A stretch of DNA of 6,981 bases from a virus. Taxonomy: Duplodnaviria > Heunggongvirae > Uroviricota > Caudoviricetes. The notes under the pieces were generated by a model. That model worked only from the letters and a program-made list of their open reading frames with translations. It was not told where the DNA came from and did no database searches. Shown here piece after piece: positions 1 to 6,981 of this stretch (positions are counted from its first letter, which is position 1; each line of letters begins with the position of its first letter). The DNA is taken from IMG/VR virus record IMGVR_UViG_2695420514_000012; one strand, given 5' to 3'. The translations under genes were made by a program, and so were the position numbers.

Positions 1-1
1 A

Positions 2-133
2 GCTGTTTACGGTGCGCAGGGGGTCAAAGTGCCACTGAATGATGCGCTTCTTCAGTGGGAGAAGGAGCATACAGAAGGCACCTCAGATCCATTTGCTGAG
101 ATTGAGAAGGCATTATTTGTTGCTGCTCGGTGA
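2..133 (+). CDS. 3' end of an upstream gene (partial, start lies outside the window); probably the tail assembly chaperone (G-T type) by synteny
   Basis: Open frame from position 2 to TGA at 131-133, translating to AVYGAQGVKVPLNDALLQWEKEHTEGTSDPFAEIEKALFVAAR*. Same strand and similar GC to the tail genes downstream. The identity as the T/GT chaperone is inferred only from its position upstream of the tape measure gene; I do not recognise the sequence itself. Confidence 0.4.
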   Translation, partial: AVYGAQGVKVPLNDALLQWEKEHTEGTSDPFAEIEKALFVAAR

Positions 134-142
134 TCTTTTCAC

Positions 143-173
143 TTGACTGGATTATTATTCCCATTTTATTGAG
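143..173 (+). promoter_or_regulatory. Putative sigma70-type promoter for the moron ORF
   Basis: TTGACT at 143-148 is a near-consensus -35 hexamer. The -10 is ambiguous: TTTTAT at 164-169 or TATTGA at 167-172 in the AT-rich stretch about 15-18 bp downstream. The assignment is weak and an upstream promoter could drive this gene instead. Confidence 0.25.
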
Positions 174-190
174 AAAGTAAGGAAACATTG

Positions 191-532
191 ATGGAATTTT
201 TACTTATTTCAATAGTTTTGGGACTAATTCCAGCTATTATTGCGAAAAGCAAAGGTCGCTCATTTTTAGGATGGTGGGTATATGGTGCGATGATCTTTAT
301 TGTTGCTCTGGTTCATTCGCTGGTAATCCAAAGAGATGAGAAGGCACATGAACAACAAATGGTAAGCAATGGCATGAAGAAATGCCCTTACTGTGCGGAG
401 TTGATCAAAGAAGAGGCTATTAAATGTAAGCATTGCGGTAGTGATTTAATTTGCAATGCAGATAGTTCCGTTTCACAAAAAACGGATGATGAATATCTTC
501 AGGAAGCAAGGCGTAAGGCCGGACTTCTTTAA
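191..532 (+). CDS. Hypothetical small membrane protein with two predicted TM helices and a C-terminal CxxC-x10-CxxC zinc ribbon (moron gene)
   Basis: ATG at 191 is preceded by AAGGA (179-183) at 7 nt spacing; the ORF track start at 188 is a TTG one codon upstream. Stop TAA at 530-532. The protein [51 protein letters not shown]... has two hydrophobic segments (about aa 3-18 and 25-46) separated by the basic loop KSKGRS, then CPYC(aa 65-68)...CKHC(aa 79-82), then an acidic tail. The coding region is visibly more AT-rich than all flanking tail genes. Function is unknown. Confidence 0.7.
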
Positions 533-540
533 AGAATACA

Positions 541-564
541 AAAACCGCTTCGGCGGTTTTTTTT
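541..564 (+). terminator. Rho-independent (intrinsic) terminator downstream of the moron ORF
   Basis: AAAACCGC-TTCG-GCGGTTTTTTTT: a 4-bp GC stem (545-548 with 553-556) extendable by A:U pairs (541-544 with 557-560), a UUCG tetraloop (549-552), and an uninterrupted T8 tract (557-564). It lies 9 nt after the moron stop and 10 nt before the tape measure start. Confidence 0.75.
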
Positions 565-574
565 CGTCCGGAGA

Positions 575-3500
575 ATGAGTGTGGCGACATTACGTGAACT
601 GATTATTAAAATCTCGGCAAACTCCCGGTCATTCCAGTCAGAGATCTCCCGGGCTTCGCGTATGGGGCAGGATTACTACCGCACCATGCAGAACGGAGGC
701 CGACAGTCTGCTGCTGCATCCCGTGAAATGCGGCGTGCACTGGCAGAAGTGACGGATCAGATAAATACAGCTAAATCTTCGGCACTGAATATGGCTGGGG
801 CATTTGCCGGGGCTTTTGCTACCGGTCATCTTATTTCTCTCGCCGATGAGTGGAATTCAGTAAATGCCCGTCTGAAGCAGGCCTCACAGTCCAGTGATGA
901 TTTTCAGGCATCACAGCGTGAATTAATGGCGATCAGCCAGAGAACGGGGACGGCGTTTTCTGATAACGCCAGCCTTTTTGCCCGTTCTGCAGCTTCCATG
1001 CGGGAGTATGGTTACAGTTCTGAGGAAGTACTGAAAGTCACCGAGGCGATCTCTACTGGCCTGAAATTATCCGGTGCCAGTACAGCAGAAGCCAGTTCGG
1101 TGATCACGCAGTTCAGTCAGGCTCTGGCGCAGGGGGTGCTGCGCGGTGAAGAGTTTAACTCGGTGAATGAGAACGGCGATCGTGTTATTCGTGCGCTGGC
1201 TGCGGGAATGGGAGTTGCCCGTAAGGATCTGAAGGCCATGGCGGATAACGGAAAGTTAACTGCCGATAAGGTTGTTCCTGCACTGATTAGTCAGCTTGGG
1301 GCATTACGTGATGAATATGCGGCAATGCCTGATACGGTTTCATCCTCTGCAACCAAAGTTGAAAACGCCTTTATGGCCTGGGTTGGTGGTGCGAACGAGG
1401 CAAGCGGAGTGACGAAGACGCTCTCCGGTGTGCTGAATGGTATTGCAGGCAATATTGACACCGTGGCAACCGCTGCCGGTGCTCTGGTTGCTGTCGGGGT
1501 AGCCCGATATTTTGGCAATATGGCGGCTTCTGCTGGATCTGCAACTGCCGGATTAATTACTGCAGCCAGAAACGAAGTAGCTCTTGCGGAAGCGCAACTC
1601 CGGGGGACACAGATAGCAACCGCCAGGGCGCGTGCGGCGGTTTATCGTGCGCAACAGGCGGTTGTTGCTGCTCGCGGTACCGAAAGGCAGGCAGCAGCAG
1701 AAGCGAAGCTGACAGTTGCCCAGGCGTCGCTTACCCGTAATATTGCGGCCAGAACAGCGGCACAGACAACGCTGAATAATGTTACGTCAGTGGGGAGCCG
1801 TCTGTTAAGTGGTGCGCTGGGGTTGGTTGGTGGTGTGCCGGGACTCGTCATGCTGGGGGCGACGGCTTGGTACACAATGTATCAGAATCAGGAGCAGGCC
1901 AGAGAATCTGCACGCCAGTATGCCGCAACAATCGACGAAATTCGCCAGAAAACGTCGGCAATGTCGCTTCCTGAAACGTCAGATAATGAAGAAAAGACGC
2001 GGCAGGCACTGAAGGAGCAGAACAGGTTAATTGACGAGCAGAAAAGTAAGATCAAATCCTTACAGGAAAAAATTGCCGGCTATCAGTATGTGCTGGCAAA
2101 CCCGGGCTGGACAACCGATAACGGTTTTATGATTAACCATATGACGTCGGTAAAAACTGTCACAGAAGGGCTTGCAGAAGCAACAAATCAACTGGCAGTT
2201 GAACAGTCTCGCCTAACTCAAATGCAGGGTAAAGCGCAATCCATTCAGGATGTGCTTGCCGGGCTGGAGGAGCGGCGGGTTGCGTTGATCCGTCAACAGG
2301 CAGCGGAACAAAACAAAGCGTATCAGTCCATGTTGATCATGAATGGGCAGCATACCGAGTTTAATCGCCTTCTCGGGCTTGGTAATGAATTACTTCAGCA
2401 GCGACAGGGGCTGGTGAATGTACCGTTACGGCTGCCACAGGCCACCCTGGATGATAAACAGCAGACCGCACTGAATAACAGCGAGCGCGAACTGGCTCTG
2501 TCCCGCCTGAAGGGGGAAGCCCGTGAGCGTGCCCGACTGGGTTATGCTGCGGATGATCTCGGCTTTGTGGGAGAGGCGTATCAGACAGCCAGACAGAATT
2601 ATATCAATAACTCACTGGATGCCTGGCGAAATAACCAGGCAAATAAACCCAAAGCGCATAAAAAGACCGAAGCGGAAAAAACAGAAGATATTTATAAACG
2701 GCTGATTAAACAGCAAAAAGAACAAATAGCACTGGCAGGTCAGAATACTGAACTGGCCAGGATGAAATATCAGGTCAGTCAGGGCGAATTATCAACCCTG
2801 TCAGAAGCGCAGAAAAAAACGCTTTTACAGAATGCGGCACTCATCGACCAGAAAAAGATTCGTGAGCAGCTTGCCGCGTATGAAAGCAGTCTGGCGGACA
2901 GTAATGCCAGCGCCCGGGCATCTGACGACGCGCAGTTGCTGGGATATGGTGAAGGCTCACGGATGCGTGAACGACTCCAGGAAATGTGGAGTATCCGGCA
3001 GGCGTTTGAGCAGAAAAATAACGAGCTGCTGAGACAGTATCAGGCCGGAGAAATTGAAGAAGCCCTGTGGAAACAGGAAAAATCGCTGAATGAAAAATAT
3101 CTGGAAGAGCGTCTCAGCGATCAGCAGGATTATTATGCAAAGGCTGATGCTTTACGCAGTGACTGGAATGCCGGACTCCAGGAGGGGCTGACGAACTGGG
3201 CAGACAGTGCCACCGATTATGCTTCGCAGGCGGCAGATGCTGTCGTTTCCACTATGGACGGGCTGGTATCAAATATTTCCGATGCACTGGCCGGAAATGT
3301 TGTGGACTGGCGAAACTGGGGGAGTTCAATCCTCCAGGAAGTTTCAAAAATTCTGATGAACGCTGCCATCGTTAACGGGCTGAAGTCACTTTCCAAAAGC
3401 ATGTCCGGTGCCGGAGGATGGCTTGGTACGGTCGGCGACTGGCTTTCCGGTGCAGTGGCAAACGCAAAAGGTGGTGTTTACACATCGGCAAATCTGAGTG

Positions 3501-3820
3501 CTTACAGTAACACTATTGTGGATACACCGACGTATTTTGCTTTTGCGAAAGGTGCCGGGCTGATGGGCGAGGCCGGGCCTGAAGCTATCATGCCACTGAC
3601 ACGGGCAGCGGACGGCTCTCTTGGGGTCAGAGCCATTGGCAATGTGAATGGTGGCGGGGGATTTGTTTATTCTCCCGTGTATCACATCAGTATTCAGAAT
3701 AAAGGGAGCAATGGCGAGATAGATACGCAGTCAGCTAGGGGGCTGGTGGATCTGATCGACAGCAGGGTTGTGTCAATTATGCAGTCATCACGTCGGGACG
3801 GAGGATTATGCAGTGCCTGA
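575..3820 (+). CDS. H: Tail length tape measure protein (lambda gpH-like C-terminus; 1081 aa)
   Basis: Single 3246-nt ORF ending TGA at 3818-3820. The C-terminal third (roughly from ...DWNAGLQEGLTNWADSATDY... through ...GAGGWLGTVGDWLSGAVANAKGG...) resembles the lambda H C-terminal region as I recall it. The N-terminal part is Ala/Gly/Ser-rich and helical like a tape-measure core; there is a hydrophobic Gly-rich segment (LLSGALGLVGGVPGLVMLGATAWYTMY) and a long Q/E/K/R-rich predicted coiled coil. It sits immediately upstream of M-L-K-I-J. Start is ambiguous: ATG 575 has GGAG only 1 nt upstream, whereas the in-frame GTG at 581 has canonical 7-nt spacing. Confidence 0.92.
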   Translation: MSVATLRELIIKISANSRSFQSEISRASRMGQDYYRTMQNGGRQSAAASREMRRALAEVTDQINTAKSSALNMAGAFAGAFATGHLISLADEWNSVNARLKQASQSSDDFQASQRELMAISQRTGTAFSDNASLFARSAASMREYGYSSEEVLKVTEAISTGLKLSGASTAEASSVITQFSQALAQGVLRGEEFNSVNENGDRVIRALAAGMGVARKDLKAMADNGKLTADKVVPALISQLGALRDEYAAMPDTVSSSATKVENAFMAWVGGANEASGVTKTLSGVLNGIAGNIDTVATAAGALVAVGVARYFGNMAASAGSATAGLITAARNEVALAEAQLRGTQIATARARAAVYRAQQAVVAARGTERQAAAEAKLTVAQASLTRNIAARTAAQTTLNNVTSVGSRLLSGALGLVGGVPGLVMLGATAWYTMYQNQEQARESARQYAATIDEIRQKTSAMSLPETSDNEEKTRQALKEQNRLIDEQKSKIKSLQEKIAGYQYVLANPGWTTDNGFMINHMTSVKTVTEGLAEATNQLAVEQSRLTQMQGKAQSIQDVLAGLEERRVALIRQQAAEQNKAYQSMLIMNGQHTEFNRLLGLGNELLQQRQGLVNVPLRLPQATLDDKQQTALNNSERELALSRLKGEARERARLGYAADDLGFVGEAYQTARQNYINNSLDAWRNNQANKPKAHKKTEAEKTEDIYKRLIKQQKEQIALAGQNTELARMKYQVSQGELSTLSEAQKKTLLQNAALIDQKKIREQLAAYESSLADSNASARASDDAQLLGYGEGSRMRERLQEMWSIRQAFEQKNNELLRQYQAGEIEEALWKQEKSLNEKYLEERLSDQQDYYAKADALRSDWNAGLQEGLTNWADSATDYASQAADAVVSTMDGLVSNISDALAGNVVDWRNWGSSILQEVSKILMNAAIVNGLKSLSKSMSGAGGWLGTVGDWLSGAVANAKGGVYTSANLSAYSNTIVDTPTYFAFAKGAGLMGEAGPEAIMPLTRAADGSLGVRAIGNVNGGGGFVYSPVYHISIQNKGSNGEIDTQSARGLVDLIDSRVVSIMQSSRRDGGLCSA

Positions 3821-4154
3821 GTCTGAAGTTTTTAACTGGATCCCCCGCGAGGGGATGGAGACGACACGAAAGCCATCTGTTATTACAGTAAAGTTCGGTG
3901 ACGGATATGAACAGCGACGGGCTGGTGGTCTGAATGCGGATCTGAAAACCTTTAAACCGGTATTTCGTGTCACAGATGAATATTCCCGCGCCGCGCTGGA
4001 CAGTTTTTTATCCCGTCATGCCGGGATGCGTGCTTTTTTGTGGCGCCCGCCAAAACACAACAGGACTGTCAGGGTTGTCTGCAGGGAGTGGAGTACTTCG
4101 GATAATGCCATGTATACCGATTTTAACTGTACCTTTGAAGAGGTCACTCACTGA
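3813..4154 (+). CDS. M: Minor tail protein M (tail tip assembly)
   Basis: GTG at 3813 is preceded by GGAGGA (3800-3805) and overlaps the H stop by 8 nt; stop TGA at 4152-4154. The product is about 113 aa and carries ...KFGDGYEQRRAGGLNADLKTF...FLWRPP..., recognisably homologous to lambda gpM (109 aa) though diverged. The ORF-track start at 3768 is an in-frame upstream extension inside H and is not used; an ATG at 3855 is a less likely alternative start. Confidence 0.85.
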   Translation: MPESEVFNWIPREGMETTRKPSVITVKFGDGYEQRRAGGLNADLKTFKPVFRVTDEYSRAALDSFLSRHAGMRAFLWRPPKHNRTVRVVCREWSTSDNAMYTDFNCTFEEVTH

Positions 4155-4852
4155 TGCAGGATATACAACAGGAAACACTGAATGAGTGTACAAAAGCGGA
4201 GCAATCCGCACTGGTCGTGCTCTGGGAAGTCGATCTGACCGAAGTCGGTGGCGAGCGTTATTTTTTCTGTAATGAGCAGAACGAAAAAGGTGAGTCAGTC
4301 ACCTGGCAGGGGCGACAGTATCAGGCGTACCCTATTCAGGGAAGCGGCTTTGAGATGAACGGCAAAGGAGCCAGTGCAAGACCAACGCTGAAAGTCTCTA
4401 ACCTGCACGGCATGGTCACCGGGATGGCGGAAGACCTGCAAAGTCTGGTCGGCGGAACGGTGGTCAGGCGTAAGGTTTACGCCCGTTTTCTGGATGCGGT
4501 GAACTTCGTCAACGGAAACATCGAGGCAGACCCGGAGCAGGAGGCGATCAGCCGCTGGCGCATCGAGCAGTGCAGCGAACTGAGCGCAGTGAGTGCCTCC
4601 TTTGTACTGTCCACGCCGACGGAAACGGATGGCGCTGTTTTTCCGGGACGTATCATGCTGGCCAACACCTGCACCTGGACCTATCGCGGCGATGAGTGCG
4701 GTTATCACGGTCCGGCGGTCGCGGATGAATATGACCAGCCAACGTCCGATATCACGAAGGATAAATGCAGCAAATGCCTGAGCGGCTGTAAGTTTCGCAA
4801 TAACGTCGGCAACTTTGGCGGCTTCCTTTCCATTAACAAACTTTCGCAGTAA
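4154..4852 (+). CDS. L: Minor tail protein L (tail tip assembly, Cys-rich C-terminus)
   Basis: ATG at 4154 overlaps the M stop (cTGATG); stop TAA at 4850-4852. The 232-aa product is the same length as lambda gpL, and the sequence MQDIQQETLNECTKAEQSALVVLWEVDLTEVGGERYFFCNEQNEKG... through ...CSKCLSGCKFRNNVGNFGGFLSINKLSQ is close to lambda gpL as I recall it. Confidence 0.93.
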   Translation: MQDIQQETLNECTKAEQSALVVLWEVDLTEVGGERYFFCNEQNEKGESVTWQGRQYQAYPIQGSGFEMNGKGASARPTLKVSNLHGMVTGMAEDLQSLVGGTVVRRKVYARFLDAVNFVNGNIEADPEQEAISRWRIEQCSELSAVSASFVLSTPTETDGAVFPGRIMLANTCTWTYRGDECGYHGPAVADEYDQPTSDITKDKCSKCLSGCKFRNNVGNFGGFLSINKLSQ

Positions 4853-4856
4853 TCCC

Positions 4857-5600
4857 ATGACAGAGACAGAATCAGCGATTCTGGCGCACACCCGGCGATG
4901 TGCGCCAGCGGAGTCGTGCGGCTTCGTGGTGAGAACGCCGGAGGGGGACAGATATTTTCCCTGCGTGAATATCTCCGGTGAGCCGGAGGATTATTTCAGG
5001 CTGTCGCCGGAGGACTGGCTGCGGGCAGAGCTGCAGGGTGAGATTGTGGCGCTGGTCCACAGCCACCCCGGTGGTCTGCCCTGGCTGAGTGAGGCTGACC
5101 GGCGGTTGCAGGTGCAGAGTGATTTGCCATGGTGGCTGGTCTGCCGGGGGGCGATTCACAAGTTCCGCTGTGTGCCACATCTTACCGGGCGGCGCTTTGA
5201 GCACGGGGTGACGGACTGTTACACGCTGTTCCGGGATGCTTATCATCTGGCGGGGATTGAGATGCCGGATTTTCATCGTGAGGATGACTGGTGGCGTCAC
5301 GGTCAGAATCTCTATCTGGATAATCTGGAGGCCACAGGGCTGTATCAGGTGCCGTTGTCATCAGCACAACCGGGCGATGTGCTGCTGTGCTGCTTTGGTT
5401 CATCGGTGCCGAATCATGCCGCCATTTACTGTGGTGACGGCGAGCTGCTGCACCATATTCCTGAACAACTGAGCAAACGAGAGAGGTATACCGACAAATG
5501 GCAGCGACGCACACACTCCCTCTGGCGTCACCGGGCATGGCACGCATCTGCCTTTACGGGGATTTACAACGATTTGGCCGCCGCATCGACCTTCGTGTGA
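4857..5600 (+). CDS. K: Tail tip assembly protein K (MPN/JAMM-like plus NlpC/P60-like domains)
   Basis: ATG at 4857 lies 4 nt after the L stop; stop TGA at 5598-5600. The product MTETESAILAHTRRCAPAESCGFVV... contains an HSHPGG...SEAD JAMM-type motif and, downstream, a Cys (GVTDCYTLF) and His (PNHAAIY) consistent with an NlpC/P60 fold, as described for lambda gpK. The ORF-track start at 4815 is an upstream in-frame extension inside L. Confidence 0.9.
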   Translation: MTETESAILAHTRRCAPAESCGFVVRTPEGDRYFPCVNISGEPEDYFRLSPEDWLRAELQGEIVALVHSHPGGLPWLSEADRRLQVQSDLPWWLVCRGAIHKFRCVPHLTGRRFEHGVTDCYTLFRDAYHLAGIEMPDFHREDDWWRHGQNLYLDNLEATGLYQVPLSSAQPGDVLLCCFGSSVPNHAAIYCGDGELLHHIPEQLSKRERYTDKWQRRTHSLWRHRAWHASAFTGIYNDLAAASTFV

Positions 5601-6145
5601 AAACGGGGGCTGAAGCCATCCGGGCGCTGGCCACGCAGCTTCCGTCGTTTCGCCAGAAACTGAATGAGGGCTGGTATCAGGTGCGCATTGCCGGACGTGA
5701 TGCAGGCGAAAATGAATTATCAGCCCGTCTTAATGAACCGCTGGCAAATGGTGCCATGATCCATATTGTGCCGCGCCTGGCGGGAGCCAAAAGTGGCGGT
5801 GTGTTTCAGGCGGTGCTGGGTGCGGCGCTGATTGCGGTGGCATGGTGGAACCCCGCAGGTTGGTTGGGGGCTGCCGCAATTACAGGAATGTATGGTGCGG
5901 GGGCCAGTATGATCCTTGGCGGTGTGGCCCAGATGCTGGCCCCTAAACCCAGAACTCCCCGCACACAAACAACGGATAACGGTAAGCAGAACACGTATTT
6001 CTCGTCACTGGACAATATGGTTGCCCAGGGCAATGTTCTGCCTGTTCTGTACGGTGAAATGCGCGTGGGGTCACGTGTGGTCTCTCAGGAGATCAGCACG
6101 GCAGACGAGGGGGACGGTGGTCAGGTTGTGGTGATTGGTCGTTGA
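5498..6145 (+). CDS. I: Tail assembly protein I
   Basis: ATG at 5498 with GAGAGG upstream; stop TGA at 6143-6145. The product MAATHTLPLASPGMARICLYGDLQRFGRRIDLRVKTGAEAIRALATQL... ends ...NTYFSSLDNMVAQGNVLPVLYGEMRVGSRVVSQEISTADEGDGGQVVVIGR, matching lambda gpI as I recall it, with a Gly/Ala-rich hydrophobic linker in the middle. It overlaps the 3' end of K by 103 nt in a different frame. Confidence 0.9.
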   Translation: MAATHTLPLASPGMARICLYGDLQRFGRRIDLRVKTGAEAIRALATQLPSFRQKLNEGWYQVRIAGRDAGENELSARLNEPLANGAMIHIVPRLAGAKSGGVFQAVLGAALIAVAWWNPAGWLGAAAITGMYGAGASMILGGVAQMLAPKPRTPRTQTTDNGKQNTYFSSLDNMVAQGNVLPVLYGEMRVGSRVVSQEISTADEGDGGQVVVIGR

Positions 6146-6163
6146 TGAAAAACGTTTTATGTG

Positions 6164-6192
6164 AAACCGCCTCAGGGCGGTTTTGTCGTTTC
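6164..6192 (+). terminator. Terminator-like hairpin in the I-J intergenic spacer (possible attenuator or RNA-stability element)
   Basis: AAACCGCC (6164-6171) pairs with GGCGGTTT (6176-6183) around loop TCAG (6172-6175), giving 8 bp with 5 G:C pairs, followed by the T-rich but interrupted tail TGTCGTTTC. It is weaker than the 541-564 terminator because much of the U-tract is used in the stem. Confidence 0.35.
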
Positions 6193-6205
6193 TGGAGCGA
6201 GAGGA

Positions 6206-6981
6206 ATGGGTAAAGGTGGCAGTAAGGGGCATACCCCGCGCGAAGCGAAGGACAACCTGAAATCATCCCAGCTGCTGAGCGTGATAGACGCCATCAGTGA
6301 AGGGCCGATTGAAGGTCCGGTGGACGGATTAAAAAGTGTGCTGCTGAACAGTACGCCGGTGCTGGACAGTGAGGGGAATACCAATATCTCCGGTGTCACG
6401 GTGGTGTTCCGGGCAGGTGAGCAGGAGCAGACACCGCCGGAGGGATTTGAATCCTCCGGTTCAGAAACCGTTATCGGTGCAGAATTAAAATATGACAATC
6501 CGCTCACCCGGACCATCACGTCGGCAAACATCGACCGTCTGCGCCTGACCTTCGGTGTGCAGGCACTGGTGGAAACCACTTCAAAGGGGGACCGGAATCC
6601 TTCGGAAGTTCGCCTGCTGGTTCAGATACAACGTAATGGTGGCTGGGTGACGGAAAAAGACATCACCATTAAGGGCAAAACCACCTCGCAGTATCTGGCC
6701 TCGGTAGTGGTGGATAACCTGCCGCCGCGCCCGTTCAGTATCCGGCTGCGCAGGATGACGCCGGACAGCACCACAGACCAGCTGCAGAACAAAACGCTCT
6801 GGTCGTCATACACCGAAATCATCGATGTGAAGCAGTGCTACCCGAACACGGCACTGGTCGGCGTGCAGGTGGACTCTGAGCAGTTCGGCAGCCAGCAGGT
6901 GAGCCGTAATTATCATCTGCGCGGGCGCATTCTGCAGGTGCCGTCGAACTATAACCCGCAGACGCGGCAATACAGCGGTAT
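6206..6981 (+). CDS. J: Central tail fibre / host specificity protein J (5' portion, runs off the window end)
   Basis: ATG at 6206 with GGAG (6194-6197) at 8 nt spacing; open to the window end, so it is absent from the ORF track, which lists only stop-terminated ORFs. Translation MGKGGSKGHTPREAKDNLKSSQLLSVIDAISEGPIEGPVDGLKSVLLNSTPVLDSEGNTNISGVTVVFRAGEQEQTPPEGFESSG... is near-identical to the lambda gpJ N-terminus as I recall it. Confidence 0.93.
   Translation, partial: MGKGGSKGHTPREAKDNLKSSQLLSVIDAISEGPIEGPVDGLKSVLLNSTPVLDSEGNTNISGVTVVFRAGEQEQTPPEGFESSGSETVIGAELKYDNPLTRTITSANIDRLRLTFGVQALVETTSKGDRNPSEVRLLVQIQRNGGWVTEKDITIKGKTTSQYLASVVVDNLPPRPFSIRLRRMTPDSTTDQLQNKTLWSSYTEIIDVKQCYPNTALVGVQVDSEQFGSQQVSRNYHLRGRILQVPSNYNPQTRQYSG

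Follow-up and report, generated by a model that had tools for sequence, protein, structure and literature searches.

The 6,981-nucleotide stretch of DNA analyzed here (the window) is the tail region of a lambdoid E. coli prophage. All of its genes lie on the plus strand, in the order T (3′ end), moron, H, M, L, K, I and J (start), and the coordinates of genes and other features are collected in Table 1. M starts with a GTG codon and overlaps the stop codon of H by 8 nt, and the TGA stop of M has one base in common with the ATG of L at 4154 (M stop and L start at 4152–4156). The overlap between K and I is 103 nt. Two minus-strand open reading frames over M (3806–3973 and 4008–4211) were discarded as unsupported, lying as they do within conserved plus-strand genes. 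Promoter-like sites are found across the window at a frequency near chance (7 compared to 4.7 expected), and a minus-strand match of this kind at 4147–4120, near the border of M and L, is weak (9/12). A search of the window for Rfam families that might mark this border found none.

Table 1 Genes and other features of the prophage tail region, in window coordinates.
Feature	Position	Strand	Evidence
T (tail assembly gene), 3′ end, partial	1–133	+	Matches annotated "phage tail assembly protein T" of E. coli CREC-2 (L002 11855–12133)
Moron insertion, ~430 bp, 37.5% GC; ORF 188/191–532	112–540	+	Indel compared to PhiR49_2 and BP-4795; Pfam Zn_ribbon_3; PHROG 8436
GC-rich hairpin followed by T run, terminator-like, between moron and H	540–561	.	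Terminator scan
H, tape measure protein, 1081 aa, HK97/BP-4795 type	575–3820	+	Pfam Phage_HK97_TLTM, TMP_3, Tape_meas_lam_C
M, distal tail protein, 113 aa, non-lambda allele	3813–4154	+	Pfam PF05939, 110.9 bits
Mosaic joint, BP-4795-like to lambda-like ancestry	4132–4150	.	Maximum chi-square; blastn start; E. coli matches confined to L
L, tail tip hub protein, lambda-like, 93% protein identity	4154–4852	+	Pfam Phage_tail_L, 330 bits
K, tail assembly protein, 247 aa, lambda-like	4857–5600	+	Pfam Prok-JAB and NLPC_P60
I, tail assembly protein, both ends lambda-like	5498–6145	+	Pfam Lambda_tail_I; protein alignment
Divergent patch, Gly/Ala-rich center of I, third allele	5660–5930	+	Windowed DNA identity; informative sites
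J, central tail fiber, first 258 codons, lambda-like, 95% protein identity	6206–6981	+	Pfam FNIII-A_GpJ

The closest relatives over the window are E. coli prophages and the isolated phages PhiR49_2 and vB_EcoS-640R1, with 94.7–96.3% DNA identity, and no record in the searched collections exceeds 96.3% across the whole window. In 894 of 5,426 complete E. coli genomes, matches at one site account for 80% or more of the window. The closest complete genome is that of E. coli CREC-2 (NZ_CP200002), in which the window corresponds to coordinates 12001–18982 of the locus analyzed (L002) and the region lies beside potB, in a prophage with HK97-type head genes. CREC-2, PhiR49_2 (PV340570) and vB_EcoS-640R1 (ON470612) have the same H-M-L-K-I-J order as the window, including the joint between M and L described below. 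The nearest relative changes along the window.

The original prediction held that M is clearly diverged from lambda gpM, with which it would share conserved islands only. Comparison with the lambda reference (NC_001416) bears this out. M is 40.4% identical to gpM (44/109 residues), and all three of the islands named in the prediction are present, reading VKFGDGY, GLNADLKT and FLWRPP in the window and VRFGDGY, GLNANLKT and FLWTPP in lambda. The corresponding protein identities are 93.1% for L, 90.4% for K, 80.3% for I and 95.0% for residues 1–258 of J. On the other side of M, H (1081 aa, compared to 853 aa in lambda) is about 25–27% identical to lambda H, and the resemblance is limited to the C-terminal 363 aa (25%). 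The DNA identity to lambda shows an abrupt step at the M/L border, with 60-nt segments of M at 32–63% and most of those from L to J at 88–100%. Segments spanning 4023–4142 are 40–50% identical to lambda, and identity is 77% from 4143 and 90–100% further along; in K it is 90–98%. A blastn search against lambda with a word size of 7 gives one single alignment, of window 4134–6981 to lambda 13409–16280 with 89.1% identity, and none upstream of 4134. Among the sampled E. coli matches, those confined to L begin at window position 4150, and the DNA homology between lambda and BP-4795 likewise starts at the M/L border. The prediction had also described L, K, I and J as close to identical to lambda. 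This is overgenerous, since the region is about 89% identical in DNA and the center of I has diverged strongly.

The genes upstream of the border have their closest classified relative in BP-4795 (Marienburgvirus), with which they are collinear. The H protein is 77% identical to the BP-4795 tape measure protein (ORF67) and 55% identical to HK97 gp16, and for the M protein the identity is 65% with BP-4795 M and 39% with HK97 M. Window L, by comparison, is 34% identical to HK97 L. Together with the lambda identities, these values identify H-M as an HK97/BP-4795-type shaft and L-J as a lambda-type tip. The L-K-I-J DNA of BP-4795 differs in this respect, being about 65–90% identical to both the window and lambda, and BP-4795 is therefore without the lambda-type tip block. 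The expectation that H and M come from another lineage than the tail-tip genes is thus confirmed; the moron, which had been assigned to the same lineage as H and M, turns out to be a separate insertion (see below). Within H, the first ~300 residues are nearly identical to those of HK97 gp16 and the remainder is much less conserved.

M has the profile, predicted fold and gene position of the distal tail protein family. It matches Pfam PF05939 (Phage_min_tail) over profile positions 1–107 of 108, with a score far above the cut-off of 39, as well as the lambda protein in the tail tip structure (8IYK_M, E = 8.6e-25), and it sits between the tape measure gene and L, as gpM does (ORF map and Pfam). 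An AlphaFold2 model built from a 30-sequence alignment has a mean pLDDT of 80.4, and its top Foldseek match is a chain of the lambda tail tip (8IYK_E; TM 0.85/0.88, rmsd 2.1 Å). The predicted fold of M is thus the tube-like β-sandwich of gpM. A single-sequence AlphaFold2 model (mean pLDDT 40) was discarded; the 30-sequence alignment was needed. Window M and lambda gpM (PDB 8IYK, 8K35) agree in Pfam family, length, gene position and predicted fold, and differ in that protein identity is only 40% and synonymous divergence is saturated. In lambda, gpM is a hexameric distal tail ring whose β-sandwich side binds gpV (PMC10721106) and whose E-loop side stacks on the trimeric ring formed by gpL(HDI) and gpJ(HDII) (PMC10721106, PMC12617516, PMC11101478). 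Window M, being homologous, would likewise assemble into a hexameric ring that separates the tail tube from the L/J hub. Both FGDGY and GLNADLKT map in or around a hairpin of residues 23–48 that, judged by the topology of the model, is tentatively a candidate for the E-loop; confidence is low for residues 21–40 (pLDDT 62–64).

We used BP-4795 as the third taxon in a formal comparison, as its alignment to the window extends over the whole of H to J (about 73–76%). This comparison is confined to three reference lineages; HK97 and PhiR49_2 were compared by alignment and BLASTP only. In M, the window agrees with BP-4795 at 87 informative sites and with lambda at 31. The corresponding numbers are 22 and 141 in L, 17 and 77 in K, and 15 and 147 in J. 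Left of position 4133 the window agrees with BP-4795 at 87 sites and with lambda at 28, compared to 97 and 512 to the right (Fisher p = 3e-36). The best breakpoint in a maximum chi-square analysis falls between 4132 and 4134, about 20 nt ahead of the overlapping M stop and L start, and its value of 182 compares to a top value of 27 in 2,000 permutations (permutation p < 0.0005). At the border, the synonymous divergence (dS) from lambda decreases by a factor of 6 to 10, from a saturated value of about 2.0 for M to values of 0.34 (L), 0.18 (K) and 0.26 (J). For L, the dS of 0.34 to lambda contrasts with 1.59 to BP-4795. The GC content at third codon positions (GC3) also steps up, with values of 0.51 (H) and 0.50 (M) upstream of the border and 0.64 (L), 0.66 (K) and 0.69 (J) downstream of it. 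The identity step, the three-taxon switch, the drop in dS and the step in GC3 are four independent measures, and on their account we place a recombination junction at the M/L border, where the original prediction had expected one.

The M/L joint is a standard lambdoid module junction and a true change of ancestry. As at other lambdoid mosaic junctions, identity changes abruptly, within about 20 nt; the nearest relative is a different one on each side, which amounts to phylogenetic incongruence; the stretch where the change occurs, 4132–4150, adjoins a gene border, that of the M stop and L start; and the flanks are found recombined elsewhere. The L-J block is attached to lambda-type V-G-T-H-M genes in the TUM2330 prophage, to window-type H-M together with HK97-type head genes in CREC-2, and to window-type H-M in PS1Thumoskin9.

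At the level of single nucleotides, the final 10 nt of the window ahead of ACTGATGCAGGATAT are unlike both lambda and BP-4795, and from 4150 all three agree closely. The last four codons of M (EEVTH, window 4140–4151) likewise resemble neither of the two. M ends in EQVVN in both lambda and BP-4795, which are identical over 25 nt across the M/L overlap. We considered ACTGATGCAGGATAT as a universal linker between M and L. It is common to the window, lambda and BP-4795 but absent from the HK97 M/L joint, and is therefore the conserved 5′ end of lambda-family L genes and no general linker.

The position of the crossover deserves some discussion. It might truly lie within the 5′ end of L, at about 4230–4240, or there might be two close joints, the first 80 nt of L being a third, lambda-related allele. 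Identity to lambda is 77–78% in 4143–4262 and reaches 90–97% only past about 4233, and the informative sites in 4167–4258 are mixed, with 17 at which the window agrees with lambda, 7 at which it agrees with BP-4795 and 6 that are specific to the window. Against this, the single best break found by maximum chi-square is the one at 4132–4134, the segment 4163–4262 is still nearer to lambda (78%) than to BP-4795 (68%), and both the lambda blastn alignment and the sampled E. coli matches confined to L start at 4134–4150. We therefore regard a crossover inside L as improbable, although, since the first 80 nt of L are about 77–78% identical to lambda, the crossover at the end of M could be slightly fuzzy or accompanied by a small extra patch at the start of L. 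The direction of the exchange could be either, with the lambda ancestor or the window ancestor as the recombinant.

A different objection is that no recombination took place and that M, being less constrained, merely evolves faster than the genes from L to J. M is indeed small, with few motifs that are invariant across the family, and among the tail genes it has the lowest protein identity between lambda and BP-4795. Yet dS, which is largely blind to protein constraint, jumps as well (2.0 compared to 0.18–0.34), the nearest relative switches from BP-4795 to lambda at the border, GC3 shifts at the same place and the whole transition spans about 20 nt. Moreover, H and everything upstream of it in CREC-2 belong to another family than their lambda counterparts. 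Since site grouping, dS and GC3 are independent of protein-level constraint, we reject fast evolution of M as a very unlikely account. Least probable of all, to the point of being negligible, is an assembly or binning artefact that fused two prophages, for although an E. coli genome harbors several lambdoid prophages whose L-J genes resemble each other (the median number of matching places is 3), a situation that invites misassembly, the joint is present at about 100% identity in a closed chromosome, at least 80% of the window is covered at a single site in 894 complete genomes and the joint also occurs in independently isolated phages, and a joint seen in hundreds of closed genomes and in isolated phages is no product of assembly.

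Recombination at the M/L border is also the reading that fits the distribution of the joint among relatives. PS1Thumoskin9 is about 100% identical to the window over ~2240–4500, that is, across the joint, and 82–98% identical past 4500. In H, its identity to the window is 65–80% in 541–1800 and about 100% from 2240 onwards, so that H is itself mosaic. Because the joint is intact in PS1Thumoskin9, which differs elsewhere, we conclude that the joint was inherited as a unit and that newer breakpoints lie inside H and L. The occurrence of the chimera in isolated phages and in about 900 of the 5,426 genomes further means that it is old and has already been sequenced.

On the tip side of the joint, the lambda-like block of CREC-2 is 4.6 kb long and 92% identical to lambda, and ends inside J at about codon 830, near lambda coordinate 18,000. 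The center of I (5660–5930) interrupts the resemblance within the window. Its DNA is 37–64% identical to lambda and 39–61% identical to BP-4795, compared to 56–71% between lambda and BP-4795, and its informative sites fall into classes B, L and O with 32, 27 and 43 sites, respectively. It represents a third allele with indels, lambda and BP-4795 being closer to each other than to the window. In gpI, the Gly/Ala-rich linker holds the predicted transmembrane helices H1 and H2 (PMC1779556, PMC11101478).

Several smaller differences were noted in the same block. In K, at window 4977–4997, the lambda reference (L001 5254–5273, NC_001416 about 14253–14272) reads GGAGG-CTATTTC, where the window, CREC-2 and the TUM2330 prophage (95% lambda-like) read GGAGGATTATTTC. 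Owing to the one-base difference, the first ~45 codons of K, which correspond to the N-terminal part of the JAB domain, are not in frame with the rest of the gene in the lambda reference, in which K is annotated with 200 aa compared to 247 aa elsewhere. In the L-K spacer, at window 4851 just past the L stop, the window has one base fewer than lambda, BP-4795 and CREC-2 (GCAGTAATCC compared to GCAGTAAATCC). Within the I-J spacer (6146–6205), which has about 90% identity to lambda, lies a GC-rich hairpin (AAACCGCCTCAGGGCGGTTT); the I-J spacer of BP-4795 is longer and unrelated to that of the window.

The moron at the other end of the window is a separate insertion with its own history and does not travel with H and M. 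Of 902 E. coli genomes with the T-H flanks, only 44 have it, and it is missing in PhiR49_2, BP-4795 and PS1Thumoskin9, where T adjoins H. As expected of a moron, it is an extra gene of atypical base composition, with 37.5% GC compared to 50–59% in the adjoining genes. The insert also substitutes the last codons of T. The terminator-like hairpin that follows it is retained in PhiR49_2 and BP-4795, both of which are without the moron, and no promoter-like site was found upstream of the moron ORF in the scan of the window, where the number of such sites is near chance overall. The ORF is predicted from its sequence to encode a small membrane protein with a zinc ribbon: the N-terminal half of the 113-aa product is hydrophobic, and the protein matches a zinc ribbon family (PF13248) and falls into PHROG 8436, of unknown function. 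PADLOC gave only sub-threshold noise for it. The HK97 gp15 moron, which has been treated in connection with superinfection exclusion (PMC3594210), occupies the same slot between T and H. The two morons lack sequence similarity to each other, and gp15 was discarded as a homologue (BLASTP E = 0.3).

Taken as a whole, the window is best explained as a two-lineage recombinant tail cluster with its crossover at M/L, inherited as an old unit and divided at the border between shaft and tip, and we give this reading a probability of about 0.93. T, H and M are of the HK97/BP-4795 type, as are the head and tail-tube genes that lie upstream in its close relative CREC-2, and the genes from L to the proximal part of J belong to the lambda type. 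The crossover took place within the final 20 nt of M, where the M stop and the L start overlap (4132–4150). Later exchanges account for the breakpoints inside H and L and for the divergent center of I, and the moron was inserted separately on top of these. The joint in the DNA probably coincides with a border in the particle that is known from papers on the lambda tail structure, between the six-fold shaft (tube, tape measure protein and M ring) and the three-fold tip (L, J and I). Such a hybrid may be tolerated because the M ring would dock on the L/J ring by a generic, tube-like stacking surface with motifs that are conserved family-wide. The FGDGY, GLN and F.W.PP motifs are invariant even in HK97 M. 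For this reason we dismissed the idea that the islands in M represent a specific co-adaptation to the lambda-type tip, as the same residues are kept in HK97 M, which is paired with an L of only 34% identity to that of the window. Their invariance in spite of a very different L suggests instead a generic family core, which may explain why shaft and tip are exchangeable. In lambda, the C-terminal helix of gpH (residues 818–849) associates with the C-terminal part of gpI (PMC10721106, PMC12617516, PMC11101478).

Both the phenomenon and this exact chimera are already known, the latter from public phage and E. coli records. That lambdoid phages evolve as patchworks has stood in textbooks for over 20 years. 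Hendrix, Juhala and colleagues reportedly described a "pervasive genetic mosaicism" of HK97, HK022 and lambda, with lambdoid module junctions of this kind. Tail genes have also been analyzed with respect to their co-transfer in blocks (PMC9836094). The M/L joint resembles known lambdoid junctions in its abrupt change of relatedness at a gene border in the late operon, in flanks that are recombined elsewhere and in tail genes that move as blocks. There is no difference in kind; it is one instance, in which an HK97/BP-4795-type shaft is combined with a lambda-type tip.

One could go further and regard the M/L border as a preferred and recurrent exchange point, set by the change from six-fold to three-fold symmetry, with FGDGY, GLNxxLKT and FLWxPP as a universal docking surface. 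We consider this doubtful. If it were true, there should be many independent M/L joints, and residues in M should co-vary with V and H rather than with L and J.

The significance of the present results is mostly one of annotation, in that they provide a clean and well-delimited case of lambdoid modular exchange. A lambda-type tip, consisting of L, K, I and the proximal part of J, works with a shaft, a tape measure protein and an M ring that are only distantly related to those of lambda. For the typing of prophage tails this means that host-range genes are not inferable from the type of the head or the shaft. The M/L joint also suggests a site at which tail gene clusters may be cut for the engineering of chimeric tails.
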